NCBI GenBank assembly: GCA_029259175.1
Contig: JAPDJH010000002.1
Location: 128,673-192,672, forward strand
DNA length: 64,000 nt
Direction of reading: 5' to 3'
Source of the DNA: Hadesarchaea archaeon
GTDB lineage: Archaea > Hadarchaeota > Hadarchaeia > Hadarchaeales > Hadarchaeaceae
A model generated the notes under the pieces. The model was not told the origin of the DNA. It worked only from the letters and a program-made list of their open reading frames with translations, and made no database searches. Made by a program: the position numbers and the translations under genes. Positions within the stretch are counted from its first letter, which is position 1; each line of letters begins with the position of its first letter. Positions 4,530 through 57,860 of this stretch are shown here, in pieces.

Positions 4530-4739
4530 GTGAATCGAACTCTTGAGGACTCGGAAATCTCGTTTGGCGTCTCCAGCTACAGCTGGATCTTCAACAACCT
4601 TGAGAATACTGAGCCCTCCGAGTGGGCCGTGACTGGGCCGCTGACGATCGTGCCACCGGCTCCTCTCGTCTACTCCCCGACCCATCCGGTGCAGAGCGAG
4701 TACCAGGGCTTCTTCCTGAGTGGGGTAAGGACGCAGTAG
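4530..4739 (+). CDS. Hypothetical small ORF; its C-terminus shares a 41-bp repeat (VQSEYQGFFLSGV) with the 3' end of the large secreted protein gene
   Basis: The exact 41-bp match 4689-4729 = 9793-9833 was seen in the sequence. Confidence 0.25.
   Translation: MNRTLEDSEISFGVSSYSWIFNNLENTEPSEWAVTGPLTIVPPAPLVYSPTHPVQSEYQGFFLSGVRTQ
4689..4729 (+). repeat. 41-bp direct repeat, copy 1 (gtgcagagcgagtaccagggcttcttcctgagtggggtaag)
   Basis: It is identical to 9793-9833. Confidence 0.9.
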
Positions 4740-4790: not shown

Positions 4791-6160
4791 CTACCAAGTT
4801 CCAGGTTCTTTCGGGGGCGGAACCCCGAATCCCTTGGCCGCCGAACGCTTTCTGAAAAAGCTCATGACACCAGCCGCGGCACATATGAGTATGCCAAGTA
4901 TCAGGATCACAGGCAAATCGAGCTGCAGACTGGTGGGTTGCTCGGGGGGAGGGCCGAAGCAGTAGAGCGTGCCATGAGTCGAGCCCACATATACTCTATT
5001 ATAAGCAACAGCTGGAGATGACGAAATAACATTGACAGTATCATAGCTCCAGATTATCGAACCGTTCTCAACATTCAGCATGCAAAGTTTGCTCCCAGCG
5101 CCGATGATGACTTTCCCGTCCGCGACGGCGGGAGATGAATAAAACCACGTTTCGTCGATGAAGGTGCTCCACACCACCGAGCCGTCCCTTGCATCCAAAG
5201 CGTAAATGCAATTGTTGTATCTGGATCCGAAAATCACCTTGCCGTCAACGACGACGGGGGAATTTGTTATCATCACGTTTTCGGTGTCGAAGTGCCAGAG
5301 GAGTTCCCCGGTGCGTGCGTCGAGTGCCCACACTCCATCGCCAGACAGGTGTCCCATGAATCCAGCGCCGATGTAAAGGACGTTATCAACAACTACTGGC
5401 GAGGTAGGTATCTCATCTCCGATGTGAAACTTCCAGATTAGATTCCCGTTGTCGGCATCCAAAGCATAGACCCAACCAGTATATCCTATTCCTCCCGCTC
5501 CAGTCCCGAAGTACACAATACCATTCACAAATGCGGGTGCCTCCATAACATGTCCCATCGCGCCGCTACCATCGCTGTACTCCCAAATCAACTCACCCGT
5601 GTTTGCGTCTAAGCAATAAAACCACCCATCCCAAGAGCCGAAGTAAACCCGGTTATTCACCACAGCCGGAGCTGAGTCGACCCCGTGGAGCCCTTTACTT
5701 GGCCAAGGAACTTCGAAACGCCATTTCACTTCACCCGTCTCGGCATCGAAAGCGTAGAGATAGTTCTCATCGCCAACATAAACTGTGCCGTCAACAACAG
5801 TTGGAGAAGGGAGAAGACCCCCCCTGCATCCCGGCCAGCCTGATAGCTCCACACTAGCGAGCCGTCCTCGGCATCGAGAGCATAGATGTAAAGATGACCG
5901 TCCATCCTATTCAGCGCCGTGAAATAAACCTTGCCCTCGGCAACAGCGGGCGACGACCCGATGTCTGCGTATCGAGGAGAAAACCACCAGATGACTTCCA
6001 GCTCGTCAGGAATATTCGCTGAAACTAAACCTGTTCGTGCCCAATCGCGACGGAAGGTCGGCCACTCATCATCTATGCTCGGCTGCCCAGCAACGGTCGG
6101 AAGAACGAGGAAAGCCAACCCTAACAGCAAAACCGCTGCCGTTTTCAGACCTGTGTACAT
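4791..6160 (-). pseudogene. PQQ-like beta-propeller repeat membrane protein, frameshifted paralog of 6522..7841
   Basis: ORFs 5726..6331 and 4791..5852 overlap in different frames. Together they are collinear with the intact paralog (signal peptide, TFRRDWARTGL, YIYALD, ...DENYLYAFDAETGEVKWRFEV...). The frame break lies near a C7 run at about 5818-5824. The putative start is 6160. Confidence 0.7.
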
Positions 6161-6521: not shown

Positions 6522-7841
6522 TCAAAAGTGCCTTCGCTTACCTACAACTCTAGACGCGCCGAATGCAATTGTAACGATGATCACGAGAGAGATACCGAGG
6601 AGCTGGAACCAGTCGAACGAAGTGGTGGATGATAATTTTGGACCATAGCAAATGAGTTCGCCATTCCTATTACCCACAAATATTTTACCATATGCAATTG
6701 CCGGAGACGATGAAATAAGGCCACCAACATCTTGGCTCCAGATTATCGAACCATTCTCAACATCTAGAATGTAAAGTTCGCTCCCCCCCCCCCCGATGAT
6801 GACTTTCCCGCCCGCAACGGCGGGAGATGAATAAAAATATGTTTCGTTGTTGATGGAAGTGCTCCACACCACCGAGCCGTCCCCTGCATCCAAAGCGTAA
6901 ATGCAATTGTTGTATCTGGATCCGAAAATCACCTTGCCGTCAACGACGACGGGGGAATTTGTTATCATCACGTTTTCGGTGTCGAAGTGCCAGAGGAGTT
7001 CCCCGGTGCGCGCATCGAGTGCCCACACTCCATCACCAGATAAATCTCCCATGAAGCCAGCGCCGATGTAAAGGACATTATCAACAACTACTGGCGAGGT
7101 AGTTATCTCATCTCCGATGTGAAACTTCCAGATTAGATTCCCGTTGTCGGCATCTAATGCGTAGACCCAACCGGTGTATCCTACTCCTCCCGCTGCAGTC
7201 CCGAAGTACACGATATCATTCACAAATGCTGGTGCCTCCGTAACGTGTCCCATCGCGCCAACACCATCACTGTACTCCCAAATCAGCTCACCTGTGTTTA
7301 CGTCTACGCAATAAAACCACCCATCCCAAGAGCCGAAGTAAATGCGGTTGTTTACCACAACTGGAGCAGAGTCGACCCCGTGGAGCCCTTTCCTTGGCCA
7401 AGGAACTTCGAAACGCCATTTCACTTCACCCGTCTCGGCATCGAAAGCGTAGAGATAGTTCTCATCACCAACATAAATTGTACCATCAGCAAGAGTTGGG
7501 GAAGGATGACGTCCTCCTCCGGCATCCCGGTTGCCACGGTACTTCCACATAACCGAACCACTCTTAACGTCAAGCGCATAAATGTAAAGATAACCGTCTT
7601 TTCCTACCCCTGTGAAATAAACCTTATTCTCACCAACGGCGGGCGATGATTTAATATCAACTAGTTCCGAAGAAAACTTCCAGATAACTTCGAGTTCGCT
7701 AAGAATGTCTATCGAAGCCAAGCCTGTTCGTGCCCAATCGCGACGAAATGTTGGCCACTCCTCCTCAGTTTGTCCAGCAATTATAGGGACACCAAGCGCG
7801 ATTACTATGAGCAAGACGACCAAGGTGATACGATGTTTCAT
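6522..7841 (-). CDS. PQQ-like beta-propeller repeat protein with N-terminal signal/TM and C-terminal TM anchor
   Basis: There are repeated PQQ-type blades (YALDA.TGELLW, VYVGDENYLYAFDAETGEVKWRF...) and a C-terminal LLGISLVIIVTIAFGASRVVGKRRHF. The real start is probably MKHRITLVVLLIVIALG at 7841; the listed ORF to 8201 looks like an antisense extension. Confidence 0.8.
   Translation of the reverse strand: MKHRITLVVLLIVIALGVPIIAGQTEEEWPTFRRDWARTGLASIDILSELEVIWKFSSELVDIKSSPAVGENKVYFTGVGKDGYLYIYALDVKSGSVMWKYRGNRDAGGGRHPSPTLADGTIYVGDENYLYAFDAETGEVKWRFEVPWPRKGLHGVDSAPVVVNNRIYFGSWDGWFYCVDVNTGELIWEYSDGVGAMGHVTEAPAFVNDIVYFGTAAGGVGYTGWVYALDADNGNLIWKFHIGDEITTSPVVVDNVLYIGAGFMGDLSGDGVWALDARTGELLWHFDTENVMITNSPVVVDGKVIFGSRYNNCIYALDAGDGSVVWSTSINNETYFYSSPAVAGGKVIIGGGGSELYILDVENGSIIWSQDVGGLISSSPAIAYGKIFVGNRNGELICYGPKLSSTTSFDWFQLLGISLVIIVTIAFGASRVVGKRRHF
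6783..6794. repeat. Homopolymeric C12 tract (G12 on the coding strand, encoding GGGG) inside the PQQ-propeller gene
   Basis: ctcccccccccccgatgat was read directly. The paralog has gctcccagcgccgatg at the same site. Confidence 0.9.
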
Positions 7842-7902: not shown

Positions 7903-9942
7903 ATGGGCTGGAGGCTGGCATCCTCGGTTGTGGTTTGTCTTCTGTTGCTAAGCTCGGTAACTTCATCCGTTGTGCTGGCGAACACGGTCGAAACACAAAT
8001 TTCTAGTTCAGATGATACCAACCTTAGTTTCCATTCCTTGGAGAACTCGCTGTCAATCCTCTCTTCAGACACGGTTGAAATCTCGGAGAACTCCCAAGTT
8101 TCGCCAACCGCGCGACCTTGGATAGACCAGCTAAATGAGTTCGAAAATGCCTTGGTGATGCTCAAGCGTGATTGTGAAAACCTAGATGAAGAACAACTCA
8201 ATCGTCTGGTCTATGAACTTCAGCTGAGTGCCGAGAACTTCGAGAGCGAGTTCTCAAGCACGCTCAGGGCCATTGGGGAGCTGGATAACACGTTGCTCGT
8301 GGTGCGCCCAGATGGGACGCGCTCGGTTGAGGCGACGGTCGGGCAGGACGAGAGGTTCCTGAGGTGGTGTGAAAACGTGTTACAATTAGTGCAAGAGTTC
8401 ACCGAGTGGACCGGCAGACTCCGGGAAAACCTTGAGAAAGTCGATACGGTTCTTGAATATCTTGGGGCGATTAGAGAGCTCATCGAAATGGCACCATCCG
8501 GAAACACCGTCGTCGTAGAAGACTTCTGGCTCGAGCGCTACGAATATGAAGTCGGGTGGGTTAGGATCGAGCCACGCGAGGCTCGCATAGGCGACTACGT
8601 GCGCGTCGGCATAAAGCTTCACAACACGGATTGGCTCGCACGCGGGCGCACGTGGCTGTGGTTCGGGGGATTTCTCGAAGGACTGGAGGGCTACGCCGAC
8701 CTGGGCGCGACCCAGACTTTAACCACATACGTGGACGAGTTCACGATTCCAAGATGGTATCGGGAGGACTACTTTGTCAGCGTTGAGGGTCGCTGGGAGT
8801 CCTGGGCGCTCATTTTCTTCGTCTGGACCAAGACTGGCGAGGGAGAGATATCGAAGCAGGAGCTTGTGATCAACAAACGTCCAAAATCATCTGTCCGACC
8901 TGTCGAACCCCAAGAACCCAGCCCTTGGGGCACCACCTTCACCTACTGGACCGACATCGACGACCCGGACGGCGAAACGGTCACGGTTACCCTTTACAAG
9001 GACGGCATCAAATACGGCGATTCAAAAACCGTCCACGGCTCTGGCTCCCCGAGCTGGACCTGGACTTCGACCGCGGACGACATCGGCGAGCACACCTACT
9101 ACTTCGAGATCACTGACGAGTACGGGGTCACCGTCTACGATCCTCCAACCGGTGTTCATTCCGGCCCCACCGTCACTAAGCGTTCCACAACCCTCACGAT
9201 AACCGTCAGCGACGACACCCCGGCCTTCGGTCAGCTCATAACCTTCACCGGGGAACTCCGCGACGAGTTCGGCGAGCCCGTTGCTGGGAAGACGATTAGG
9301 CTCTACAAGACCAAGATAAATGAAAACCCGGTGGACACGGGGCTGAGCGCCACGACGGACTCGCAGGGTCGCTACACGATTTCATTCGTCTACGAGGATA
9401 CGGAAGTTTTCGGCTACTTCGCTAGCTTCGAGGAGGACAATCTGTACTTCGGCTGCGAAAGCGGCAAAATCTGGATCGGGGACACCGAGCCCCCGCCAGC
9501 CCCCGAGGTCCAATCCGACACCCACCCCGACCCCAACGTGTGGTACGCGCGCTCCGAGGTGGTCTTCAGCTGGCCAACACCCCCGGACGACTCCGGGATC
9601 GTGGGGTACAGCTACGCCCTTGACTCGCTGCCCAACGAAACTATAGAGACGACCGGGAATTCGGTTCTCCTTCAGGATGTGCCGGACGGGGAGCATTGGT
9701 TTTATGTGAGGGCGCAGGATGGTGCCGGCAATTGGACTCCGGATGATGCCGTGGAGAGCAAGGCCTGCCGGGTGCGGATCGACACGAAGGCAGTGCAGAG
9801 CGAGTACCAGGGCTTCTTCCTGAGTGGGGTAAGCATGCCAAACAACTACTACTTCATTCCGCCATCTAATGTCACTGTCACCGGAGTGACCTTCAAGATG
9901 GGCGGTACTTCAGTCCCAGGTGAAAAAAATGAGCGGAGATAG
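7903..9942 (+). CDS. Secreted or surface protein with signal peptide, coiled N-terminal region and C-terminal prealbumin-like (Cna-B/CarbopepD_reg-like) and Fn3-like domains
   Basis: The signal peptide is MGWRLASSVVVCLLLLSSVTSSVVLA. GKTIRLYKTK...TTDSQGRYTISFVY is typical of a Cna-B/carboxypeptidase regulatory-like fold. GEHWFYVRAQDGAGNWTPDD is typical of an Fn3 C-terminal strand. GC rises sharply after about 8520. Confidence 0.65.
   Translation: MGWRLASSVVVCLLLLSSVTSSVVLANTVETQISSSDDTNLSFHSLENSLSILSSDTVEISENSQVSPTARPWIDQLNEFENALVMLKRDCENLDEEQLNRLVYELQLSAENFESEFSSTLRAIGELDNTLLVVRPDGTRSVEATVGQDERFLRWCENVLQLVQEFTEWTGRLRENLEKVDTVLEYLGAIRELIEMAPSGNTVVVEDFWLERYEYEVGWVRIEPREARIGDYVRVGIKLHNTDWLARGRTWLWFGGFLEGLEGYADLGATQTLTTYVDEFTIPRWYREDYFVSVEGRWESWALIFFVWTKTGEGEISKQELVINKRPKSSVRPVEPQEPSPWGTTFTYWTDIDDPDGETVTVTLYKDGIKYGDSKTVHGSGSPSWTWTSTADDIGEHTYYFEITDEYGVTVYDPPTGVHSGPTVTKRSTTLTITVSDDTPAFGQLITFTGELRDEFGEPVAGKTIRLYKTKINENPVDTGLSATTDSQGRYTISFVYEDTEVFGYFASFEEDNLYFGCESGKIWIGDTEPPPAPEVQSDTHPDPNVWYARSEVVFSWPTPPDDSGIVGYSYALDSLPNETIETTGNSVLLQDVPDGEHWFYVRAQDGAGNWTPDDAVESKACRVRIDTKAVQSEYQGFFLSGVSMPNNYYFIPPSNVTVTGVTFKMGGTSVPGEKNERR
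9793..9833 (+). repeat. 41-bp direct repeat, copy 2
   Basis: It is identical to 4689-4729. Confidence 0.9.
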
Positions 9943-12645: not shown

Positions 12646-13623
12646 GCCGTGCAAAGTGGTGCCCCGGCACCGACGCGAAGGAGAACTTTCGAGCGATTAG
12701 TACCGGTGGGCTGAACGCCTCGCCGAAGCTCGGCGCTTACACCCCCGGCCTATCAACGGGGTCTTCTGGCCCCAGCTCGCGCCCCGACCACCCTTTCGGG
12801 CGATCGGAGCAGGGCGCCTAGTCTAGGGGGCTGCTTCGGCCTTAGATGCTTTCAGGCCTTATCAGCTGGCGCGTGGCTACCCGGCCTGCCCTGTCGGACA
12901 GCCGGTACACCAGAGGCGCCGGCCTCCTGTTCCTCTCGTACTAGGGAGACCTTCCCCGCAGGCGCCCTACGCCCCCGGAAGATAGCATCCGACCTGTCTC
13001 GCGACGGTCTAAACCCATCTCACGTTCCCCTTTAACGGGCGAACAACCCTACCCTTGGCCGCTGCTACACGGCCAGGATGGGAAGAGACGACATCGAGGT
13101 AGCAAACCGCGGGGTCGATGGGGACTCTCGCCCGCGACCACTCTGTTATCCCCGGGGTACCTTTTCTGTCATCCGAGGCCCTCACCAATAGGGCACTCGG
13201 GTTCGCTAGGCCCGGCTTTCGCCCCTGCGAGCCTTGGTAGTGAGCTCGCAGTCAGGCCGGCTTATGGCCTTGCCCTCTACGGCGGATTTCTGACCCGCCT
13301 GAGCCGACCTTTGGGCTCCCTTGTTACCTTTTCGAGGGACTGCCGCCCCAGCGAAACTGCCCACCTGCCGCTGTCCCCACTCCCGAGGAGCGGGTTAGAA
13401 ACACAGCACCGGATGGGCGGTGTTACATTGGCGCCTCCACCGGACCCGGAGGCCCGGCTTCGACGGCTCCCGCCTACGCTCTGCACCCGAGGCCGTGTTC
13501 CAACGACAGGCTGCAGTGAAGGTCCACGGGGTCTTCGCTTCCCTCCGGGGGTCCCCGGCATGTTCTGCCGGCCAGTGGGTTCACCGGGTTCCGGGCTGGG
13601 ACAGTGGGGGGCTCGTTGATCCC

Positions 13624-13655
<32 letters not shown>

Positions 13656-13660
13656 TTACG

Positions 13661-14362
13661 CTACCTTAAGCGCCCTTCTCTCGCGCGAGAAGGGTGGACC
13701 GTATCATCGTCCTCTCTCGAGGACGCCCGGCGTACGGTCTCTGAGGATCCTCCCTCAACGAGCCTTCGGAGTTTTTCCTTCTTCTCCGGATGGCGGAAAC
13801 CCACTACTTCTTGAAATCGTCGCACTCGCTGGAATCCTTTGACCACGAGCGACCACTGTGGGTGCTTTCCCCACCCGCGCGCTTTTTTCACCCGTATCGA
13901 ACTCTCGATTCCAGCCGTTCTCAGGATTCGCTGAACCTCTGTGATAACGGGCTTTGCTATCATGTCTATACCGACATAAGGATATGTGTACACCCGCGCG
14001 CCGTGAGTCTGGATGTCGATTCCGCAGTAGCCCTCCGTGTCGAAGAGTCCTCGCACGATTTCGAGTTCCGATTGCTGGTTTCCCAGAAATGCTTTTGGTA
14101 TCTTGGCGGTTGTCAGCTTCCGGCCCTTTGGATAGCCGAGCTTGCGTAGCAATCGGTGAATTTCGCGCTGGTTGGAGGTCACCGCCCAGCAATTGGGTGC
14201 CACTCGGCGCAGGTTTGGTTTTATTCCAAAGATTTGCTCCACCAGTTTTCCACACCGTTCCACGAACTCCCGGTTTCGATCTCTGCAGAACACGGTGTAG
14301 GAGTTCCCGTACACGCCGCCGTCACCGAGCATCACTCCGATCAGATAGGCCAGCGATCCCAT
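13661..14362 (-). CDS. LAGLIDADG homing endonuclease (double-motif, monomeric type)
   Basis: Two LAGLIDADG-like motifs were found, LAYLIGVMLGDGGV and VRGLFDTEGYCG. The ORF runs 3 codons into the downstream exon. Confidence 0.85.
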   Translation of the reverse strand: MGSLAYLIGVMLGDGGVYGNSYTVFCRDRNREFVERCGKLVEQIFGIKPNLRRVAPNCWAVTSNQREIHRLLRKLGYPKGRKLTTAKIPKAFLGNQQSELEIVRGLFDTEGYCGIDIQTHGARVYTYPYVGIDMIAKPVITEVQRILRTAGIESSIRVKKARGWGKHPQWSLVVKGFQRVRRFQEVVGFRHPEKKEKLRRLVEGGSSETVRRASSREDDDTVHPSRAREGRLR

Positions 14363-14531
14363 TGTCTCTCTTTAAGAGGGACTTTGTTACTATTTATGGA
14401 TTTCTCTGGCTCTCGGGAGTTTCCTGCGGGTCGACCTCATCGAGAACGGACCTTGTTACCTCCAACACGGAGGTAGTCCGTTCCCTATACGTCTTCCCCG
14501 CATACAGCCGGGTTTAACGACCCCCTTCGTC
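13670..14531 (-). mobile_element. 23S rRNA intron (archaeal BHB-spliced type) carrying a homing-endonuclease ORF. It is inserted between ...GGGGTAACTCTGACCCTC and TTAAGGTAGCG..., E. coli ~1927 region
   Basis: The exon junction sequences were identified at 14532-14549 and 13659-13669. The intervening ~860 nt contains the LAGLIDADG ORF plus a ~170-nt 5' leader. Confidence 0.65.
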
Positions 14532-16686
14532 GAGGGTCAGAGTTACCCCCGCCCCTTGGCGGCGCTTCGGCCGGCTGAACCCGGCTTTCACGTACCGCCG
14601 GTGGGCAGGATTCAGCTCCCGTACTCACCCTTTCGGGCTCGCGGGAACCTACGTTTTTATTAAACAGTCGGCCCCCCCTTGTCACTGCGACCTGCCTCTC
14701 GCGAGGCAGGCACCCCTTCTACCGAGGCTACGGGGCCAACTTGCCGAGTTCCCTAGCCCGGTGTATCCCGACACGCCTTAGGCTTCTCACCCAGGGGCAC
14801 CTGTGTCGGTTCTAGGTACGGTCACCTGGGATCCCATTTCCCAGCTCCCTTTTCACGGGCCCTAGGGCTCAGCCGAACCCGCCTTTCGGCAGGCCATTCC
14901 CGCCTTCGTCCGGTTCTCTCCGTTACGGAACTCCCCGGACTTGAGCGGTTAGATGGGGCGACGACCCCACTCGGCCTACCCCGAGGCGTCGGGAGCTAGG
15001 CCTTGCGTTGCCGCAGGTACCCAGGTGGCTCCGGAATATTAACCGGATTCCCTTTTGGGTGCCTCTGGTTGAGGGCACCCTTAGGACCGGCTAACCCTAG
15101 GCTGACGACCATTGCCTAGGAACCCGGGCCCCTTCGGCGGCCGGGATTCTCACCCGGCTCTGCTGTTACTACCGCCAGGATTTTCATTCCGACGCGGTCC
15201 ACCAGACCTCACGGCCTGGCTTCTCCCCACGCCGGACGCCCCCCTACCGGATCGGCCTACTATACTTCGGCCGCCCCGGGGTCTCGGTGGCCGGCTTAGC
15301 CCCGAGTATCTTCGGGGCCCCCTCCCTCGGCGGGTCCGCTGTTACGCGTTGTTTAAAGGATGGCTGCTTCTAAGCCTACCTCCCCGCTGTCTGAGGGAGA
15401 GGACGCCCTTTCCGGTAACACTTAGCCGGCACTTGGGGACCTTAACCCCGGTCTGGGTTTTTCCCCTCTCGGAGCGGGAGCTTACCCCCCGCATCCCGTC
15501 TCCGGCGGTCTACGGTGCTGGCGGCTTCGGAGTTCGACAGGCGAGGCGAGGGTTTCCCCCCGTCACTCGCCAATCGGTGCTCTACACCGCCAGCGACCTC
15601 GCGCCGGGCCTGACTGCGGCCAGCTTCGGGGGGAACCAGCTATCACCGGGCTTGATGGGTCTTTCGCCACTAGCCCGGGGTCATCCGACCGGATTGTACA
15701 CCAAGACCGGTTCGGCCCTCCACCGAGCGTACGCTCGGCTTCGGCCTACCCCGGACTAGATCGCCCGGTTTCGGGTCGCCATGCCGTGACTCCGGGCGCT
15801 CTTCACACCCGGCCCCTCGCCCTTTCGGGCTGCGGGCATCTCGCTTTCGCTCCGGCTCCGGGGATCCAACCCCCTTAGCCTCGCCACGGCAAGGCACTCC
15901 CTGGCCCGTGATTCCAGACGGACGGCACGACCCCGATTGGCCTCCCTCGTACTACCGCCTCGCGGCGGGTTCCTTCGGGAGGTCTCATCTCTTTCGAGCC
16001 GTGCCCAACTGTCCCCACCTGGTTTCAGGCTCTTTTCACCCCCCTTCCGGGGTGCTTTTCAGCTTTCCCTCGCGGTACTGTGTTCGCTATCGGTCTCGGG
16101 ACGTATTTAGGGTTGGAAGTTGATGCCTCCCAGCTTCGGACGGCATTTCTAAGCCGCCCTACTCAGGATACCTCTCCTCGTAGCCTGCCCAGTTACGCCT
16201 ACGGGGCTTTCACCCTCTACGGCGCGGCGTTCCAGCCGACTTCGGCTTCCCGGGCGAGGCATTGGGAGAGGTCCTACAACCCCACATCCGCACTCGGTTT
16301 CCCGAGCGCGTTCGGTTTGCCCTGTGCCCCTTTCACTCGCCGTTACTCAGGGCATCGCGATTGCTTTCTTTTCCTCCCGGTACTCCGATGTTTCGTTTCC
16401 CGGGGTTCCCGCTCGCTGCCGCGAGCGCCGGGGTATTGCCCCGGCAGGAGGTCCCATTCGGCGATCCCGGGATCAAAGGCTGCATGCGCCTACCCCGGGC
16501 GTTTCGCCGCTTGCCGCGACCTTCCTCGGCGCCCGAGCCGAGCCATCCCCCAGGTGGGTTCCGGTGTTCTCCCACGAGCCGGCACCGGGAACACTGCCTT
16601 TGCACGGCGGTCATTTCGCAAATGAGCGCGATCCGCCTTCAGTACACGAGCTTTCGGGCTCGCGCACCTCATCCCAAGTGGATATG

Positions 16687-51168: not shown

Positions 51169-51245
51169 GCGGAGGTAGCTCAGGCTGGGAGAGCGTCGGA
51201 CTGAAGATCCGAGTGTCGGGGGTTCAAATCCCCCCCTCCGCACCA
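51169..51245 (+). tRNA. tRNA-Phe (anticodon GAA), CCA encoded
   Basis: GCGGAGGTAGCTCAGGCTGGGAGAGCGTCGGACTGAAGATCCGAGTGTCGGGGGTTCAAATCCCCCCCTCCGCACCA. The cloverleaf was checked by hand. Confidence 0.9.
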
Positions 51246-51256
51246 CCTAAAAAGTG

Positions 51257-51297
51257 ATTAAGTGCCCCCTCCCGCACTAATTTACCGGTAAAATGAG
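51257..51297. repeat. Left copy of ~40-bp imperfect direct repeat flanking hicBA; resembles tRNA-Phe 3' end and contains palindrome TTTACCGGTAAA
   Basis: The left copy reads agtgccccctcccgcactaatttaccggtaaaatgag. The right copy at 51825-51868 reads agtgactctcccctttcacaccaatttacctgtaaaatggag. Confidence 0.6.
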
Positions 51298-51311
51298 TTT
51301 TGTCTGGATGA

Positions 51312-51530
51312 TCAGAGCAGTTCTACGAACTCTTCCACGGTTATTCCAGCTGCCTTGAGAGTGAGATGCAAGGTCTTCTTTTTCAACGTCCGGTGAAGCG
51401 GCACCGTTAGCTTGATGACGCCCTCCGGAGTCTCTTTTTCCAGCCTCACATGACTGCCTTTTACGACAACAAAACCCGCCCGAGTAAGAGCTTTCACCGT
51501 TTCTGCTCCAGAAACAACTGGTAGCTTCAT
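51312..51530 (-). CDS. hicA: HicA-family toxin (mRNA interferase)
   Basis: MKLPVVSGAETVKALTRAGFVVVKGSHVRLEK... has the HicA fold signature (K-x-L...G...KGSH). Confidence 0.7.
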   Translation of the reverse strand: MKLPVVSGAETVKALTRAGFVVVKGSHVRLEKETPEGVIKLTVPLHRTLKKKTLHLTLKAAGITVEEFVELL

Positions 51531-51548
51531 CCAAATCCTCTGATATCG

Positions 51549-51749
51549 CTACACCGAGATCTCGGCGATCTCCACACCAGCTTTGGGCAACGGCTCCTTG
51601 ATATCCTCCAAATAGAGTTCGATAGCCTCCTTTATGTTGCGAAGCGCCTCCTCACGCGTTTCACCCTGCGACACGCATCCAGGCAGGCTCGGCACGTAAA
51701 CGACGTAACCTTCCTCCTTCGCCCGCTCCAAAACTACCTTGAGCTTCAT
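51549..51749 (-). CDS. hicB: HicB-family antitoxin (UPF0150-like)
   Basis: MKLKVVLERAKEEGYVVYVPSLPGCVSQGETREEALRNIKEAIELYLE matches the HicB N-domain. Confidence 0.65.
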   Translation of the reverse strand: MKLKVVLERAKEEGYVVYVPSLPGCVSQGETREEALRNIKEAIELYLEDIKEPLPKAGVEIAEISV

Positions 51750-52052: not shown

Positions 52053-52757
52053 TCACTCTTCAGCGATCGCTCTTCCACCATATGCGTCGATCACCCGCAC
52101 CACAACGGATCCGTCCTGCTGCCTGATTTCAAAGCGCAACCACTCGCACGCGAAGTTCTCGTTTAGCTCGCGCTCGAACCCCTCCAAGTCGGCAACGCTT
52201 TGAGCCAAGTCGTACACCCGGTAGGCGATGTGGTGCAGCCTCCCGTAGCGCGGAACCACGCCCGCGTCCAGCTGGATGCCAAACGCTCGCACACCGCTCG
52301 CGTGCTCGAACTCCGCCGGCAGATAGCCGTAGGCCCTGAGCCCCCCATCGGGGAGCCACTCGAAGCGAAGCGTGTTCTCGGAGGTGAGCGGCACGCTGAT
52401 GTCGAAACCCGTGTACTCCCACCCCATCGCGATGCGCTCGTTGATGTACTGGCGGGCACGCACTTCCACCTGGGCCTTGTCCTCTCCGCGGCGCCCGCTC
52501 TCATACATGGCGGCTTGGATCACGGTGCGGAGGGCCTCGTTGAGTTCCGTCTGGACGGCCGATGCCATGGCTTTGGTCGTGTCGGTCACCATCGCCTGGT
52601 GCAGAATGGAGAGTTCGGACTCGTACCCGCGAGCGAAGGTCTGGACCGCCAAGTAGGAGGACAAGATAACGAAGACCGTGAAAACAGCAAGAGACGCAGC
52701 AGCACCGCGTTGCTCAGAGAGGGTAGAGTGAGACACGCGCTTCCACCTGCGCCACAT
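52053..52757 (-). CDS. Pilin-like protein E: N-terminal ...SEQRG|AAASLAVFTVFVILSSYLAV (candidate class III signal peptide) plus ~200-aa extracellular domain
   Basis: An [DE][EQ]RG motif immediately precedes a hydrophobic helix. This gene is last in a five-gene co-oriented GC-rich cluster. Confidence 0.45.
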   Translation of the reverse strand: MWRRWKRVSHSTLSEQRGAAASLAVFTVFVILSSYLAVQTFARGYESELSILHQAMVTDTTKAMASAVQTELNEALRTVIQAAMYESGRRGEDKAQVEVRARQYINERIAMGWEYTGFDISVPLTSENTLRFEWLPDGGLRAYGYLPAEFEHASGVRAFGIQLDAGVVPRYGRLHHIAYRVYDLAQSVADLEGFERELNENFACEWLRFEIRQQDGSVVVRVIDAYGGRAIAEE

Positions 52758-53202
52758 GGTTTTCGGCCTCCGCTATCACCAAGGTCACGGTTCCACTAAA
52801 CACGTATTCGTCTCCCGAGGGTGCCGAGTTCTCCGGAACCGTCTGGACCCACAAGCGGTTCTCAAACCGGAGCTCGACACGCGCCCCGTGCTCAGGCGGG
52901 CAAAGGAAGTCCAGAGCCCTGGAAAGTTCTTCGCGTATAACGGATCCCGGGACTGCCGGCTCCCCGATGTCCAGGAGGTTCTCGGCGATGGCACGGAAGA
53001 AAGACACCGAGTAGTTCTCCGGCTGGGCCAGCTCCAGCGCGTGGTAGAGATAGGACGTCTGCAGCTGCAGCTGGCGAGAAGCGACTGCGGGGAGCGCGGT
53101 GAAGCCGAAGCTGTGCAGATAGGCTCCGGCGAGCACCAAGAGCACCAGCATGAGAGTAACCGCGATCGCGTCTGATACCCCGCGCTGGTCTACGCTCGCC
53201 AC
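52714..53202 (-). CDS. Pilin-like protein D: GTG start giving (M)ASVDQRG|VSDAIAVTLMLVLLVLAGAYL
   Basis: It carries the same DQRG-hydrophobic pattern. The track ORF (to 53319) has a spurious N-terminal extension. Confidence 0.45.
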   Translation of the reverse strand: MASVDQRGVSDAIAVTLMLVLLVLAGAYLHSFGFTALPAVASRQLQLQTSYLYHALELAQPENYSVSFFRAIAENLLDIGEPAVPGSVIREELSRALDFLCPPEHGARVELRFENRLWVQTVPENSAPSGDEYVFSGTVTLVIAEAENHVAQVEARVSLYPL

Positions 53203-53612
53203 ACCTGCACCTCCAGCACTCCGGGAACCAGTTTCGTGTTGTCGAAGACCGCAACGGGGAGCGAGAGCGCTGCTACAGGCGTATCGGGCGGAACAGAATC
53301 CCCGTGGCTCGCCGACCACCCATCCAGCGTGCTTATCTGGACACAGAAACTGTAGTTCTCCTGACCCACGCCAACGAGTTCCGGGAGCTGGTCGAGGCGG
53401 GAGGGATCCACGGCGTACTCAACCGTGTTTCCGCCAGCGGTGTACGCCAGCTCGTTGAGAGCCAAATGGTTGGCAATGCTGGAACACGCGTCGGCGAGTT
53501 TAGCGGTGGAGAGCCCCACCCGATAGCTGGAATAAGCGGACACGAGCAGCGCTAAGAAGACCACCACGAGCAGAGCGACCACAATTGAACGGAAGATGCG
53601 CACTAGGTCCAC
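53190..53612 (-). CDS. Small membrane-anchored protein C (N-terminal TM RIFRSIVVALLVVVFLALLVSA, no RG motif)
   Basis: There is a candidate GTG start at 53612 overlapping the upstream gene's stop by 10 nt. The long N-terminal extension in the track (Ser/Arg-rich) is probably not real. Confidence 0.4.
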   Translation of the reverse strand: MDLVRIFRSIVVALLVVVFLALLVSAYSSYRVGLSTAKLADACSSIANHLALNELAYTAGGNTVEYAVDPSRLDQLPELVGVGQENYSFCVQISTLDGWSASHGDSVPPDTPVAALSLPVAVFDNTKLVPGVLEVQVWRA

Positions 53613-53956
53613 GTGACCACCAGCCGGTTGGCTTGGAGTTCCACCTTCAGCTCGTGCTGACCAGCGGGTACGGGCGCGAGATTGTCGGCGAAGGGCAGAG
53701 GCACTTCGGCTTGTTTGTGATCGATCAGAATGAGGTTGTCGACGAAGTGCATGGTGTAGCCGGACGGGACGGTGATGTTTTCGGTGCGGGAGCCCCCGAA
53801 ATCCGCCACTTGCTGGCAGAGCTCCGACACCCGAAGTAGTGCTTCGGTAGCTGCCTGATCGGCCATCAGAGACTGAAAAACCAAGACTCCGAAGGAGCCC
53901 ACAGACACCGCAAAGAGCGAGAGAACCACCAGAGCCAAGGTTTTGAGGGCTGGCAT
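53603..53956 (-). CDS. Small membrane-anchored protein B (MPALKTLALVVLSLFAVSVGSFGVLVF...)
   Basis: There is one TM helix plus a ~90-aa domain. The start lies 5 nt after gene A's stop. Confidence 0.45.
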   Translation of the reverse strand: MPALKTLALVVLSLFAVSVGSFGVLVFQSLMADQAATEALLRVSELCQQVADFGGSRTENITVPSGYTMHFVDNLILIDHKQAEVPLPFADNLAPVPAGQHELKVELQANRLVVTWT

Positions 53957-53961
53957 GGAAA

Positions 53962-54417
53962 CTACTCAAGGGTAAGCTGTAGTTTTGCGAATGACTCGGT
54001 TCCGTCTGCTCCAGTTGCCTTAATGGTGATTGTGGTTGGACCGGAGAGTGCGGTGTTGTCCACACGTATGATAAGAGTGGATCCAAATGGAGGATCGCCG
54101 CTGGCCGGAGAGAAGCCAACGCTTACTCCAGAGGGTGTGCCGCTTGCAGAGAGAGTCACTGTTTGGTCGTAATCGCCAATTTCCTCCACGCTGACTTCGA
54201 GGTTCACCTCATTCTCACCCGAGTCCGGGATGCCCACGACCAAGCTATAGGAGGTCTGACCCTCGATCGATACGCTGAAGGAGAGAAGCTGCCGGGCCCC
54301 CTTGGAAGCCCACCCGTACACGCCGTAAGCGATTCCCAGTCCGATAACGAGCAGAACGATTCCGGCGAAGAGCTTCATGGCTAGGGGCTCGACTCCGCGC
54401 TCGTCCACGAAGAACAC
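53962..54417 (-). CDS. Pilin-like protein A: (GTG start) MFFVDERG|VEPLAMKLFAGIVLLVIGLGIAY plus C-terminal Ig-like/CARDB-like beta domain
   Basis: A DERG motif is present. The C-terminus reads TVTLSASGTPSGVSVGFSPASG...TTITIKATGADGTESFAKLQLTL, an Ig-like pattern. A TTTTAAA TATA lies ~25 nt upstream on the minus strand. Confidence 0.5.
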   Translation of the reverse strand: MFFVDERGVEPLAMKLFAGIVLLVIGLGIAYGVYGWASKGARQLLSFSVSIEGQTSYSLVVGIPDSGENEVNLEVSVEEIGDYDQTVTLSASGTPSGVSVGFSPASGDPPFGSTLIIRVDNTALSGPTTITIKATGADGTESFAKLQLTLE

Positions 54418-54461
54418 CTGTAGAATTTTGGCTGCGTGGGTTTAAAACTGGAGCGGTCGGG

Positions 54462-54483
54462 AACTACACACCCCTGTGTAGCT
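54462..54483. repeat. 22-bp hairpin inverted repeat, copy 1 (AACTACACA-CCCC-TGTGTAGCT; 1 mismatch), ~15 bp upstream of the pilin-operon TATA
   Basis: This was read directly from the sequence. It lies between the HTH gene stop (54493) and the gene A promoter. Confidence 0.85.
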
Positions 54484-54492
54484 GACCTGCCG

Positions 54493-54789
54493 CTAGAGCC
54501 GAATCCCGAGCTTTCTGAGATCTGAGATGTGGCGGCGCATTTCGAATCGAAGGATTTCCTTCACCCTTTCTGGGCCTAAGCGCCATGCCTCCTCGAGTAG
54601 CTTGACCGCGGCGGTGTTGCTGGGGGTGTGCAGATCGCTCCGAATCCAATTCACGACGGCTTGAACGCTGACACCGCAGAGGCCAGCAATTTCAGAAGGC
54701 CTGTATTTTTCCAGCAGGAGTTGCAACAGAGACATCCGGGCCCAGCGGCTGAGGCGCTCCGCTGCCGGGAACCATTTGGCGGGCTTCAC
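54493..54789 (-). CDS. Small helix-turn-helix DNA-binding protein (98 aa), candidate regulator
   Basis: The HTH reads LLLEKYRPSEIAGLCGVSVQAVVNWIRS, with a GTG start. A TTTAAAAG TATA sits ~30 nt upstream on the minus strand, with IR copy 2 ~16 bp beyond it. Confidence 0.5.
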   Translation of the reverse strand: MKPAKWFPAAERLSRWARMSLLQLLLEKYRPSEIAGLCGVSVQAVVNWIRSDLHTPSNTAAVKLLEEAWRLGPERVKEILRFEMRRHISDLRKLGIRL

Positions 54790-54844
54790 GGTTCTCGCCT
54801 CTCCTTTAGATGGGGGTTGCTTTTAAACGGAAAAACGGGAGCAT

Positions 54845-55202
54845 AACTACACACCCCTGTGTAGTTCCAAAGCGAAAACAACCGCAGTTCTATCTGCTCC
54901 GAGGGGTTGAAGCCAGCTACGCGCTTCCGCATAGTAACTACACACCCCTGTGTAGTTCAGGGAGAAACAACAGCAATTTTATTCTCCTCCGAGGGGAACC
55001 AGCTACGCGCTTCCGCATAGTCTGCAAAAACCTTCTGGCTTCACCATGTGATGTACAACTACACACCCCTGTGTAGTTCCAAGACGTAACCAACCGTAGC
55101 TCTATTCTCATTTAGCTAAAGTCAGCTACACACCCCTGTGTAGCCAGCAGGGGCCGACCTCGCTCCACTGCGCGAATCTGCAACTACACACCCCTGTGTA
55201 GT
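54845..55202. repeat. Array of five further copies of the 22-bp hairpin repeat AACTACACACCCCTGTGTAGTT (54845-54866, 54936-54957, 55056-55077, 55123-55144 [variant AGCTACACACCCCTGTGTAGCC], 55181-55202), all same orientation, with partially conserved ~30-nt sequence after each
   Basis: The copies were counted by eye. Spacings are 69, 98, 45 and 36 nt. The flank after copies 2 and 3 shares ctcctccgagggg...ccagctacgcgcttccgcatagt. The array ends 43 nt before the nrdJ ATG. Confidence 0.85.
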
Positions 55203-55245
55203 TCCACCAAGCAAAACTCTGAAATCCGCGCGCGTCGAAGAAATC

Positions 55246-57348
55246 TTGGACCCCATGCCTATTGAGAAAGTGCAAAAAAGAGACGGCCGAATTGTCGATT
55301 TCGACCAGCGCCTGATCACCGACGCCATCCACCGCGCCTTCATAGCAGCCCAACAGCCCGACAGAAAGCGTGTCAAAAAGCTCTCCGACCGCGTCGTGCG
55401 TGCCCTCGAGCGCAAATTCCGCAACCGCGTACCGAGCGTCGAGCAGATCCAAGACACCGTCGTCCAAGTCCTCCAGCGCTCCGGCTATCCAGAGATAGCC
55501 CGCGAGTACCAGCGTTACCGCAAGCAGAAGGCCGAGCTCCGCCGCCTTCGCCACCAGTTCGGCCTCGACGCTGAGCCAAAACTAACCGCAAACGCCCTCG
55601 AGGTCCTCCGCCGCCGCTACCTAAGACGCGACGAGCGCGGAAAAATCGTAGAGACCCCTGCCCAGCTCTTCAGCCGAGTAGCCAAGGCGATCGCATCCGT
55701 GGAGCGTCGCTACGGCCAGAAACCCCAGCCCCTCTACGAGCGCTTTTTCCGAGTCCTCAGCCGCCTCGAGTTTCTCCCCAACTCTCCCACCCTCTTCAAC
55801 GCTGGGACCCCGCTCGGCCAGCTCAGCGCTTGCTTCGTCCTGCCCGTGGAGGACAGCCTCACAAGCATCTTCGATACTGTCAAACACACCGCTTTAATCG
55901 AGCAGACCGGCGGGGGTGTGGGCTTCAGCTTCTCACGCCTGCGCCCAGCCGGCGATGTGGTGCGCTCCACCAGCGGTGTTGCATCGGGACCGCTCTCCTT
56001 CATGCGCGTTTTCGACACGGTGACCGATGTAATCAAAGCCGGCGGAAAGCGCAGGGGTGCCATGATGGGTGTGCTCAGCATCGATCATCCGGACGTGGAG
56101 CAGTTCATCACCGCCAAATCCGATCCCCAGAACCTCACCAACTTCAACCTCTCCGTCGCTGTCACCGACCGCTTCATGCGCGCAGTGCTCCGCGGATCGA
56201 CTCACTCGCTTGTGAACCCCCGCACTGGCCGAACCGTGCGCCGCGTCCAGGCCCGCAAGCTCTGGAACCTCATCGTCCGCAGCGCCTGGCGCACCGGGGA
56301 CCCGGGCCTGCTCTTCATCGACGAGATCAACCGGCACAATCCCACCCCTGCGCTCGGCCGCATCGAGGCCACCAACCCGTGTGGCGAAATCCCCCTCCTC
56401 CCCTACGAGTCATGCAACCTCGGAAGCATCAACCTGAGCCGGATGGCCGCTCCCGTGCGCGACGGGTGGGAGCTCGACTGGGACAAGCTCAGAGAGACCG
56501 TGCGCCTCGGCGCCCACTTCCTCGACAACGTCATCGATGCCAACCGCTACCCGCTCCCCCAGATCGAGCGCGCCACGCGCGCCACCCGCAAGATAGGTCT
56601 TGGAGTGATGGGATGGGCCGAACTCCTCATCAAGCTCGGAATCCCCTACGATTCGCCCCAGGCCGTCCGCCTTGCTTCCCGCCTCATGCGCTTCGTCTCT
56701 CGCCATGCCCGCGAGCGGTCCCGCGAGCTGGGCGAGGAGCGCGGCTCTTTTCCCGCTTTCTCCCAGAGCCGCTGGGCGTCCCGCTTCTCAGCGCTCCGGA
56801 ACGCCACAGTTACCGCTATCGCCCCCACTGGCAGCATCTCGATCATCGCCGGGTGCTCGTCCGGAATCGAGCCGCTCTTCGCGGTGGTCTTCATGCGGCG
56901 CGTTTTGGACGGGAGCCGCCTGCTCGAAATCAACCCCCTCTTCGAGCTCACCGCAAAGAGGCGCGGTTTTTACAGCGCCGAGCTGCTCCGGCGCATCGCT
57001 CGCAGGGGATCCATTCGCGGAGTCCGAGAGATCCCTTCCGATGTGCAGGAGCTCTTCGCGACCGCCCTAGACATCGACTCGAAATGGCACGTCCGAATGC
57101 AAGCGGCCTTTCAGCGCTATACGGACAACGCCGTATCTAAAACCATCAACCTCCCGCCAGATGCGGCGCCCTCCGATGTGGAGCGTGCCTTCATGCTCGC
57201 GTGGCGGCTCAAGTGCAAGGGCATCACCGTGTACCGCTACGGGAGCAAGCCGCAACAAGTCCTCTACGTGGGAGGTCCGGGTTATCTCGAGGCAGAAGCG
57301 GAGTACGCTGGGGGGTGCATGACGGGTACGTGTCCCTTCCCAGGGTGA
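55246..57348 (+). CDS. nrdJ: Class II (adenosylcobalamin-dependent) ribonucleotide reductase with N-terminal ATP-cone
   Basis: The ATP-cone reads KVQKRDGRIVDFDQRLITDAI. The active-site region is NPCGEIPL, and the C-terminal tail is CMTGTCPFPG. Confidence 0.85.
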   Translation: MDPMPIEKVQKRDGRIVDFDQRLITDAIHRAFIAAQQPDRKRVKKLSDRVVRALERKFRNRVPSVEQIQDTVVQVLQRSGYPEIAREYQRYRKQKAELRRLRHQFGLDAEPKLTANALEVLRRRYLRRDERGKIVETPAQLFSRVAKAIASVERRYGQKPQPLYERFFRVLSRLEFLPNSPTLFNAGTPLGQLSACFVLPVEDSLTSIFDTVKHTALIEQTGGGVGFSFSRLRPAGDVVRSTSGVASGPLSFMRVFDTVTDVIKAGGKRRGAMMGVLSIDHPDVEQFITAKSDPQNLTNFNLSVAVTDRFMRAVLRGSTHSLVNPRTGRTVRRVQARKLWNLIVRSAWRTGDPGLLFIDEINRHNPTPALGRIEATNPCGEIPLLPYESCNLGSINLSRMAAPVRDGWELDWDKLRETVRLGAHFLDNVIDANRYPLPQIERATRATRKIGLGVMGWAELLIKLGIPYDSPQAVRLASRLMRFVSRHARERSRELGEERGSFPAFSQSRWASRFSALRNATVTAIAPTGSISIIAGCSSGIEPLFAVVFMRRVLDGSRLLEINPLFELTAKRRGFYSAELLRRIARRGSIRGVREIPSDVQELFATALDIDSKWHVRMQAAFQRYTDNAVSKTINLPPDAAPSDVERAFMLAWRLKCKGITVYRYGSKPQQVLYVGGPGYLEAEAEYAGGCMTGTCPFPG

Positions 57349-57860
57349 TGCGCGTGGTGGTCGTCCTCTTCACCGGCACGGGACCCGGCAAAACCACGGC
57401 TGCTCTGGGCATCGCGCTGCGAGCGCTGGGGCACCGCAAGCGGGTGGTGATCGTCCAGTTCATAAAGTGGTGGAAACAGACAGGTGAGTACAGAATCGCC
57501 AAGCACCTGAGACCCCAGTACACCATCCGCCAGTTCGGCAGAAAAGGGTGGATCGGTTTGCGAAACCTCACCGAAGCCGACCGCCAGCTGGCCCTCAAAG
57601 GCCTGCGATTCGCCGAGCGCGTGCTGGAGAAAAACCCGGATGTCCTGGTGCTTGACGAAATCAACTTAGCCGTGCACTGCGGGCTGATAAAACCCGCGGA
57701 ACTCACTCGTCTGCTCAAACGCGTGCCGCGATCCACCGTGGTGGTGCTCACGGGACGGCACGCCCCGAAAGCGCTCATGCGCTTAGCCGACGTGGTCGTA
57801 GAGATGGTGCCGCGCAAGCTTCCGCGGGAATCTAAGCCCGTCGAAGGACTGAACTTTTAA
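57348..57860 (+). CDS. cobA: Cob(I)yrinic acid a,c-diamide / cob(I)alamin adenosyltransferase (CobA/CobO/BtuR family)
   Basis: The P-loop is FTGTGPGKTTAALG, and the DEIN motif is LVLDEINLA. Its ATG overlaps the nrdJ TGA (GTGATGC). Confidence 0.75.
   Translation: MRVVVVLFTGTGPGKTTAALGIALRALGHRKRVVIVQFIKWWKQTGEYRIAKHLRPQYTIRQFGRKGWIGLRNLTEADRQLALKGLRFAERVLEKNPDVLVLDEINLAVHCGLIKPAELTRLLKRVPRSTVVVLTGRHAPKALMRLADVVVEMVPRKLPRESKPVEGLNF

Follow-up and report, generated by a model that had tools for sequence, protein, structure and literature searches.

Six copies of a palindromic repeat surround a small helix-turn-helix gene

We analyzed 64,000 nucleotides of a Hadesarchaea archaeon contig (JAPDJH010000002.1; this whole 64-kb stretch is called the window) and describe here a 22-bp palindromic repeat, AACTACACACCCCTGTGTAGTT, found around the gene of a small helix-turn-helix (HTH) protein. 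The window is archaeal, as its 16S-tRNAAla-23S operon matches archaeal rRNA models. The HTH gene (54493–54789, minus strand) encodes a 98-aa protein of the Cro/C1 type, the proposed binder of the repeats. Its TATA-like box, TTTAAAAG, is located at 54820–54827 on the minus strand, 38 nt before the GTG start. Downstream of it, the minus strand carries five small genes of membrane or pilin-like type (52053–54417) with their own TATA-like box, TTTTAAAC, at 54440–54447 (minus strand). The products of this five-gene operon have class III signal-peptide-like N-termini and give weak matches to Pilin_N and DUF7285. On the plus strand, nrdJ (55255–57348) encodes a class II ribonucleotide reductase whose N-terminus carries an ATP-cone; public gene calls start it with the ATG at 55255 (697 aa). 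The end of nrdJ is overlapped by a gene for a CobA/BtuR-type corrinoid adenosyltransferase (57315–57860, plus strand), which hence probably belongs to the same operon, i.e., the enzyme that makes adenosylcobalamin (AdoCbl) would be co-transcribed with the B12-dependent reductase.

The repeat starts at positions 54462, 54845, 54936, 55057, 55124 and 55182, with 1, 0, 0, 0, 3 and 0 mismatches to the 22-mer, respectively. All six copies share an exact 18-nt core, CTACACACCCCTGTGTAG. They lie together within 54462–55203, and each copy has its CCCC centre on the plus strand. Copy 1 (AACTACACACCCCTGTGTAGCT, 54462–54483) is found 9 nt past the stop codon of the HTH gene and, in the minus-strand sense, 14 nt upstream of TTTTAAAC; the pilin-like operon is its possible target. 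Copy 2 (54845–54866) is a perfect 22-mer 17 nt upstream of the HTH-gene box in the same sense, and the HTH gene lies between these two copies. Copies 3 (54936–54957) and 4 (55057–55078) are perfect as well. In copy 5 (AGCTACACACCCCTGTGTAGCC, 55124–55145) the core is accompanied by one outer pair altered on both sides, from A-T to G-C. Copy 6 (55182–55203) is again perfect and has a weak T/A box, TCTGAAAT (55218–55225), 14 nt downstream. We tentatively assign this box, 37 nt before the ATG, to nrdJ; if it is used, transcription of nrdJ would start near 55245–55255. T/A hexamers of the consensus type stand 25–36 nt ahead of many start codons in the window, and no consensus T/A box was found within 120 nt of the nrdJ start. 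The nrdJ gene is the possible target of copies 2–6.

An earlier sequence-only reading of this DNA had described six hairpin repeats in one orientation. Coordinates and strand are all borne out, and so is the CCCC spacer; the 9-bp arms, which it took to be perfect throughout, are perfect in four copies only. The gaps between copies measure 361, 69, 99, 45 and 36 nt, in agreement with the 69, 45 and 36 nt reported before and correcting a value of 98 nt. The distance from the array to nrdJ, given before as 43 nt, is 42 nt from the end of copy 6 to a TTG at 55246, or 51 nt to the ATG at 55255. The placement of a site immediately upstream of a promoter, noticed for copies 1 and 2, holds for both and extends to copy 6 with the weak nrdJ box. 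Copy spacings of 58, 67, 121, 91 and 383 nt showed no consistent helical phase.

Outside 54462–55203, the core CTACACACCCCTGTGTAG does not occur in the window. A set of 100 shuffles yielded no motif match, i.e., none is expected by chance. Allowing up to four mismatches in the 64-kb scan added nothing except the reverse reading of the same six sites, and at 5–6 mismatches the extra matches were scattered and at chance level. We found no match of the 18-mer in a genome collection with one genome per species (185,579 species), and none in viral contigs. In JGI metagenomes it occurred on one related contig, L003, which holds the orthologous locus, and in four unrelated single hairpins from other organisms. 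These collection scans gained no distant relatives, and they rule out a dispersed or viral repeat. The motif is low-copy, local and conserved, and hence not of the kind of repetitive extragenic palindromes (REP).

Next to the pilin-like operon, 51169–51749 contains tRNA-Phe, directly followed by a HicB/HicA antitoxin-toxin pair. A genomic island at tRNA-Phe comprising HicAB, the pilin genes and the HTH gene was considered; no integrase was seen there.

A very rare archaeal family of predicted Cro/C1-type proteins

The 98-aa protein, which the sequence-only reading had called an HTH protein, matches Pfam HTH_23 (E = 3.4e-6; 27.1 bits with a cut-off of 24.6). This cut-off is passed by the window protein only, and the other members of its family scatter over several HTH models. 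Marginal Pfam matches among 15 family members were to YdaS (8/15), HTH_23 (8/15) and P22_Cro (4/15), and NCBIfam gave no match for the window protein. From a 15-sequence alignment, AlphaFold2 produced a confident six-helix model (predicted local distance difference test, pLDDT, 93.6) with a Cro/C1-like helical fold that includes the helix-turn-helix. Foldseek against the PDB found nothing significant for this protein, and in a profile search of PDB sequences all matches had E ≥ 0.01. The protein has an additional N-terminal W-P-x-x-E-R-L-S-R segment and a long C-terminal helix. It contains neither a sensor domain nor a catalytic transposase domain.

A k-mer-indexed search with the single protein returned only the identical protein and an 84% relative, so exhaustive HMMER searching was needed for the rest. 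In 1.84 billion representatives it yielded about 15 true relatives, and a profile search of 5.8 billion clusters gave 27 clusters. Three top multi-stretch HMMER matches (P0003, P0004 and P0011) were repetitive proteins unrelated to the HTH family and were discarded. Named members come from MSBL1 single-cell genomes and from Hadesarchaea DG-33-1. Judged by predicted fold and by these searches, the protein is of the Cro/C1 type and represents a very rare archaeal family.

Related genes in other archaea carry their own palindromes

DNA around the gene was fetched for eleven further lineages, with homologues taken from the exhaustive HMMER search, and sites were read on the HTH sense strand. In nine of the eleven lineages (43–84% and lower identity), GGGG-centred palindromes flank the HTH gene, each with arms of 6–9 bp on either side of N-GGGG-N. 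L090, L091, L092, L095-97, L098-99, L100, L101-102 and L104 have two to four palindromes each, with arms of 6–8 bp and at most 350 nt from the gene. In L090 (P0005), TTTTAC-TGGGGT-GTAAA adjoins a T/A box, and two tandem copies extend across the stop codon. L091 (P0006) has GTTGA[TC]-AGGGGT-GTCAAC upstream and across the stop codon, and L092 (P0007) has TTAAAG-NGGGGN-CTTTAA adjoining the start codon and across the stop codon. Arms of GGCAAC...GTTGCC are present three times in L095-97 (P0012), where the first site is followed after 15 nt by TTTAAAAG, and three times in L100 (P0013), where TTTAAAAAG follows the first site after 10 nt; copy 2 and its box in the window are arranged alike. In L098-99 (P0014) one site is located at the transcription start region and two fill the 22-nt gap to a convergent gene. 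L101-102 (P0017), with L101 from Hadesarchaea DG-33-1, has four sites with TGTAAC...GTTACA in a 320-nt divergent intergenic region, and L104 (P0020) has GACGAC...GTCGTC twice upstream, one either side of the T/A box. L006 (P0002) has kept copy 1; its contig ends before copy 2. In the MSBL1 lineages L093 and L103 (P0009 and P0008), a single upstream site combines the L098 arms with the centre CATG.

The pattern matched 32 times in 107 kb of loci plus the window on both strands. Twenty-five of these matches fell within the 8 kb adjoining the genes, where 0.56 were expected, and in all 25 the GGGG was on the HTH sense strand. The usual layout is one site at or near the promoter (a pair in one lineage) and, in most lineages, another at or just past the stop codon. 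A palindrome 0–110 nt upstream of the gene was present in the window and in ten other lineages. Because the relatives carry their own version of the site at both gene ends, the repeats are most likely binding sites of the HTH protein encoded among them.

The neighbours of the gene differ. Among the neighbourhoods inspected, neither nrdJ nor pilin genes were found beside HTH homologues elsewhere. At the nearest nrdJ loci (54–66% identity, mostly metagenome-assembled genomes of Bathyarchaeia) the upstream regions were short and unrelated, and neither an HTH gene nor an array was present. The sequence-only reading had suggested that a shared regulator couples a surface-structure operon to ribonucleotide reduction. 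This did not generalize: as the homologues have other neighbours and other nrdJ loci lack the array, any such coupling would be confined to the window lineage.

Two further observations were made at these loci. In L090, L091, L095, L098 and L100, public gene calls run through the 3' site, so that the predicted proteins have motif-encoded residues at their ends (…FTGV, …DRGVN, …GNRGVA…, …INRGVD); in a similar way, some N-termini extend over the upstream site. We regard the ends annotated in this way as probable artefacts of the palindromes. In L103 (4004–5627), from an MSBL1 single-cell genome, an IS605-type OrfB/TnpB gene runs convergently to the HTH homologue, and a strong hairpin, CCCACGGATAAATCCGTGGG, lies between the two. 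We judge this arrangement to be coincidental.

Site arms stay symmetric and change with the recognition helix

When 25 distinct sites were aligned, GGGG and the inner A...T pair were invariant. The arms vary between lineages yet stay symmetric: 90.5% of the alignment cells hold complementary bases, and 7 of 8 pairs have changed in both arms. None of 500 shuffles reached this level. Moreover, similar recognition helices go with similar arms across lineages. SH[TA]AVE[RG]W is found with GGCAAC (P0012, P0013), [ST][AP][QS]A[VI]S[NH]W with [AG]T[CA]AACA (P0014, P0009, P0008) and, in the window, SVQAVVNW with CTACAC. The half-site centres are ~11 bp apart, which is what a dimer reading successive major grooves requires.

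The array contains apparently duplicated units and varies between strains

Beside the six copies, two degenerate copies (CAGCTACGCGCTTCCGCATAGT) were found at 54914–54935 and 55000–55021. The palindrome is retained in the degenerate sequence, with ACA/TGT changed to GCG/CGC and the centre changed to CTTC. Identical 23-mers lie at 54913–54935 and 54999–55021; the first contains the degenerate copy at 54914–54935, and the other copy is inside the second. Both degenerate copies align with copy 5 and show three compensated pairs. Copies 2, 3, 4 and 6 have homologous downstream flanks of 20–45 nt, in line with the partly conserved flanks noticed before. On the plus strand, these four copies are followed by a CCAAAGCGAAAAC-like sequence and then by a weak T-rich box (TTCTATCT, TTTTATTC, CTCTATTC and TCTGAAAT). 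Since they share homologous following sequence, the array region looks like diverged tandem duplications of a 60–90-bp unit.

L003, the same locus in a ~98% identical strain, has five copies, and an 86–91-bp unit with copy 3 is missing. Next to this presence/absence difference, the tract 54908–55056 is 9.4% diverged from L003, mostly by transitions, compared with ~1% around it. This tract may be a product of local recombination or a hypervariable patch within the array. Positions 55057–55254, which include copies 4–6, differ from L003 at 1 of 198 positions, no more than coding DNA does. The contigs L007–L009, which encode the identical HTH protein, have all six copies. L006 comes from a species with an 84% identical HTH protein. 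There, 21 of the 22 positions of copy 1 are retained, against a difference of ~21% in the flanking intergenic DNA, and the pilin-operon box persists as TTTTAAGC; the contig ends 40 nt upstream of the HTH gene.

The repeats as probable operators of the HTH protein

We consider it probable that the 22-bp repeats are bound as duplex DNA by the 98-aa Cro/C1-type protein, whose gene lies between copies 1 and 2, and serve as its cognate operators. The sequence-only reading had proposed the adjacent HTH protein as binder of the palindrome, and this proposal gains strong comparative support from the lineage-specific palindromes at the genes of nine homologues, with recognition helices that track the arms. 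The protein, probably as a dimer, would read the two symmetric arms in successive major grooves, with the conserved AC-N-GGGG-N-GT centre between them. As it has no sensor domain, it would presumably be a concentration-dependent autoregulator like Cro, the controller (C) proteins of restriction-modification systems or the Aca proteins. The ancestral module may have consisted of a site at the gene's own promoter and, in most lineages, a site at its 3' end. In the window lineage this module would have expanded by duplication of 60–90-bp units, each with a site and a promoter-like flank, into a five-site array that fills the intergenic region between the HTH gene and the divergent nrdJ-cobA. The site at the 3' end would double as upstream site of the pilin-like operon promoter. 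In the best-supported reading, the upstream site multiplied into an array independently in the window lineage and in a Hadesarchaeon.

Archaeal factors that bind upstream of the TFB-recognition element (BRE) and TATA box usually activate, and those at or downstream of the box repress (PMC4706686; PMC5512572). Activator-dependent archaeal promoters often have no consensus T/A box (PMC5512572), and nrdJ has none either. Copies 1, 2 and 6, at 14–17 nt before a T/A box and about −45 to −67 from the expected transcription starts, hence would occupy activator-type positions. Copy 5 would lie at the transcription start of a promoter in the copy-4 unit. That the sites control nrdJ-cobA and the pilin-like operon is suggested by this geometry, for the window lineage only.

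Several observations weigh against operators of this kind. The asymmetric GGGG centre does not vary in nine lineages and is found on the HTH sense strand in every case; a symmetric dimer bound to duplex DNA has no obvious need of such a strand-fixed element. Variant sites change symmetrically within one genome (two arm types in L098, copy 5, the degenerate copies), which hairpin formation demands and duplex recognition does not. The place of the upstream site relative to the T/A box varies between lineages: it precedes the box in the window, L095, L100 and L090, and it is found at the start site or start codon in L092, L098 and L104. The downstream site, in lineages that have one, lies at the stop codon or overlaps it, also in front of a convergent neighbour (L092, L098), where it cannot serve as operator of a promoter. 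Close strains carry five or six copies, so not every copy is essential, and related nrdJ loci have no array.

Alternative explanations

In a second reading, the sites are a private autoregulatory or insulating module of the HTH protein. Copies 3–5, perhaps the whole array, would then be by-products of tandem duplication, and nrdJ-cobA and the pilin operon would not be meaningfully controlled. We regard this as possible, though less probable than wider control. It fits that the sites go with the HTH gene whatever its neighbours and are missing from other nrdJ loci, that the copy-3 unit is present or absent between ~98% identical strains beside the diverged tract, and that the units share homologous flanks, as duplications do. 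Arguing for wider control, the distance between copy 2 and the T/A box of the HTH promoter recurs at copies 1 and 6, and L006 keeps copy 1 together with the pilin-operon box. The near-identity of copies 4–6 with L003 points the same way; it is weak evidence, with divergence so low.

Rather unlikely, in our view, is that the repeats are oriented hairpins (in single-stranded DNA, a cruciform or RNA) with a variable stem and a G-rich loop that is recognised, marking the ends of the HTH gene. Such hairpins could serve as cassette boundaries, as 5' or 3' mRNA structures for post-transcriptional autoregulation, stability or termination, or as an insulator or roadblock. Covariation of the stem around an invariant N-GGGG-N centre on a fixed strand would be explained, as would the compensatory changes within single genomes (types A and B of L098, copy 5, the degenerate copies). 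In L090, L091, L092, L098 and L100, transcription certainly runs through the 3' site, which overlaps the stop codon. Predicted hairpin energies range from −3.5 to −12 kcal/mol. RNA of the 431-nt intergenic region has a more stable fold than its shuffled versions (z = −5.5), a trivial consequence of the palindromes that the region contains. Arm mismatches on the sense strand comprise 6 G·T versus 2 A·C, a bias in the expected direction but not significant. Against recognised hairpins speaks the self-complementary CATG centre in MSBL1, which with unchanged arms removes the loop altogether; this is tolerable for a spacer between half-sites, not for a recognised loop. Moreover, the upstream site precedes the T/A box in the window as well as in L095, L100 and L090, and hence lies outside the mRNA of the HTH gene there. 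The fold of the protein is that of a standard duplex-binding Cro/C1 protein, no Rfam family matches, and no recombinase or HUH nuclease is nearby.

It is very improbable that the repeats are ends or relics of a small mobile element with the HTH gene, i.e., a mini-insertion sequence or a miniature inverted-repeat transposable element (MITE), or a dispersed family like REP or bacterial interspersed mosaic elements (BIME). Of these, the sequence-only reading had named REP/BIME and the ends of a mini-insertion sequence as alternatives. Direct repeats do bracket a small gene with a transposase-like HTH_23 match, gene neighbourhoods vary by lineage and one homologue adjoins an IS605 tnpB gene, but the 64 kb hold no other copies, the 185,579 species genomes and the viral contigs gave no match, the one related contig in the JGI metagenomes is the orthologous locus, terminal inverted repeats and target duplications are absent like a catalytic transposase domain, the context is identical across independent samples (L003 and L006-L009, L095-97, L098-99, L101-102), and the family is single-copy on each contig examined. 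REP/BIME repeats were rejected because all six copies share a single 780-bp region, within the 64 kb of this genome that were available. An insertion sequence or MITE was rejected because the repeats are direct, the 98-aa protein has no catalytic domain and the context is stable across samples.

Other candidates were rejected as follows. An array of clustered regularly interspaced short palindromic repeats (CRISPR) does not have spacings of 361, 69, 99, 45 and 36 nt with mutually homologous 'spacers', one of which is the HTH gene. For an AdoCbl riboswitch or another known RNA before nrdJ, there was no Rfam match at the gathering score in the window or at E ≤ 1 in 54300–55400. A NrdR regulon does not fit either, since the adjacent protein is an HTH protein, the sole ATP-cone is in NrdJ, and motif and spacing differ. 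A replication origin with origin recognition boxes or iterons was dismissed as well: the sites follow the HTH family and not orc1/cdc6 or Rep, and no AT-rich unwinding element was found, although no dedicated orc1 scan was made.

Other features of the window

The 23S rRNA gene (12678–16574, minus strand) is ~900 nt longer than the Rfam model. An open reading frame inside it on the same strand (13661–14362, 233 aa) has two LAGLIDADG-type motifs (LAYLIGVMLGDGG and GLFDTEGY), and the insert is probably an rRNA intron encoding a homing endonuclease. A 1.1-kb segment is tandemly repeated at ~4984–6073 and ~6673–7766 with 84% identity, probably as paralogous genes, and a 41-nt exact repeat (~4689–4729 and ~9793–9833) flanks this region.

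Comparison with known systems

To our knowledge, binding sites are known for very few archaeal transcription factors, and at the genes of archaeal class II ribonucleotide reductases for none outside the NrdR-containing minority. Here, the proposed pairing of a protein with its site was obtained from comparison alone. Because arms and recognition helices change together, and with only ~27 clusters, the HTH family is small enough to map its recognition code. The layout with sites at both gene ends and the strand-fixed GGGG go beyond the textbook dimer on a palindrome, and could reveal looping, a roadblock or hairpin recognition. If the repeats were recognised as hairpins, this would be an undescribed structure-specific HTH system that brackets a tiny gene in several archaeal phyla, and that was co-opted in the window organism as an array before the essential nrdJ operon. 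The reach of these findings is limited in that the family is rare, the link to nrdJ and pilin genes is confined to one uncultured lineage, and small HTH autoregulators with palindromic operators are well known.

NrdR is a zinc-ribbon and ATP-cone protein that binds two 16-bp boxes 15–16 bp apart (PMC13584703). The window resembles such a system in having repeated partial palindromes upstream of a ribonucleotide reductase operon. In contrast, the window protein is an HTH protein without ATP-cone, and its 22-bp sites have another sequence and spacing and follow the HTH gene, not nrd. The sequence-only reading had also found the motif unlike the NrdR box, and the differing sequence, spacing and protein type confirm this. 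In a Chloroflexi nrdJ locus (L016, ~3990–4070) we observed nrdR with AT-rich partial palindromes just upstream, which we took to be NrdR boxes.

Among archaeal activators, Ptr2, TFB-RF1, TrmBL1 at gluconeogenic promoters and EarA at the fla operon are alike in that sites lie immediately upstream of BRE/TATA, as in the window, where the nrdJ box is weak. EarA, a regulator of a type IV pilus-like structure, also acts through several repeated sites (PMC5512572; PMC4706686). The likeness is one of geometry alone: Lrp/AsnC, TrmB and EarA activators are unrelated proteins, their sites are not GGGG-centred palindromes, and these are not known to bracket the regulator gene.

In phage Cro/CI arrays (lambda, P22, 434), copies of a ~17-bp palindrome likewise fill a divergent intergenic region beside a small-HTH gene. 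Unlike these, the window set is chromosomal with no prophage, as no viral matches were found. Its gaps are irregular (36–99 nt) and the sites do not abut, and they are mostly upstream of T/A boxes instead of overlapping them.

A further likeness is to the C proteins of restriction-modification systems and to the Aca autoregulators, with Cro/C1 or XRE-type HTH folds (C.EcoT38IS, C.Esp1396I, Aca1, Aca7). Dimers of C and Aca proteins occupy palindromic boxes, often several in a row, in the promoter of their own gene, with concentration-dependent activation followed by repression. The window protein differs in having no sequence-level membership in these families, with marginal Pfam matches spread over HTH_23, YdaS and P22_Cro. 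Its host is an archaeon with TATA/BRE promoters, and there is no restriction-modification or anti-CRISPR partner gene. Moreover, the window protein has the additional W-P-x-x-E-R-L-S-R segment and the long C-terminal helix, a second site is located at the 3' end of the gene, and the site centre is an invariant asymmetric GGGG. We conclude that the repeats and the HTH gene are probably a new, rare archaeal variant of a well-known type of switch, with two architectural features that this type does not explain.

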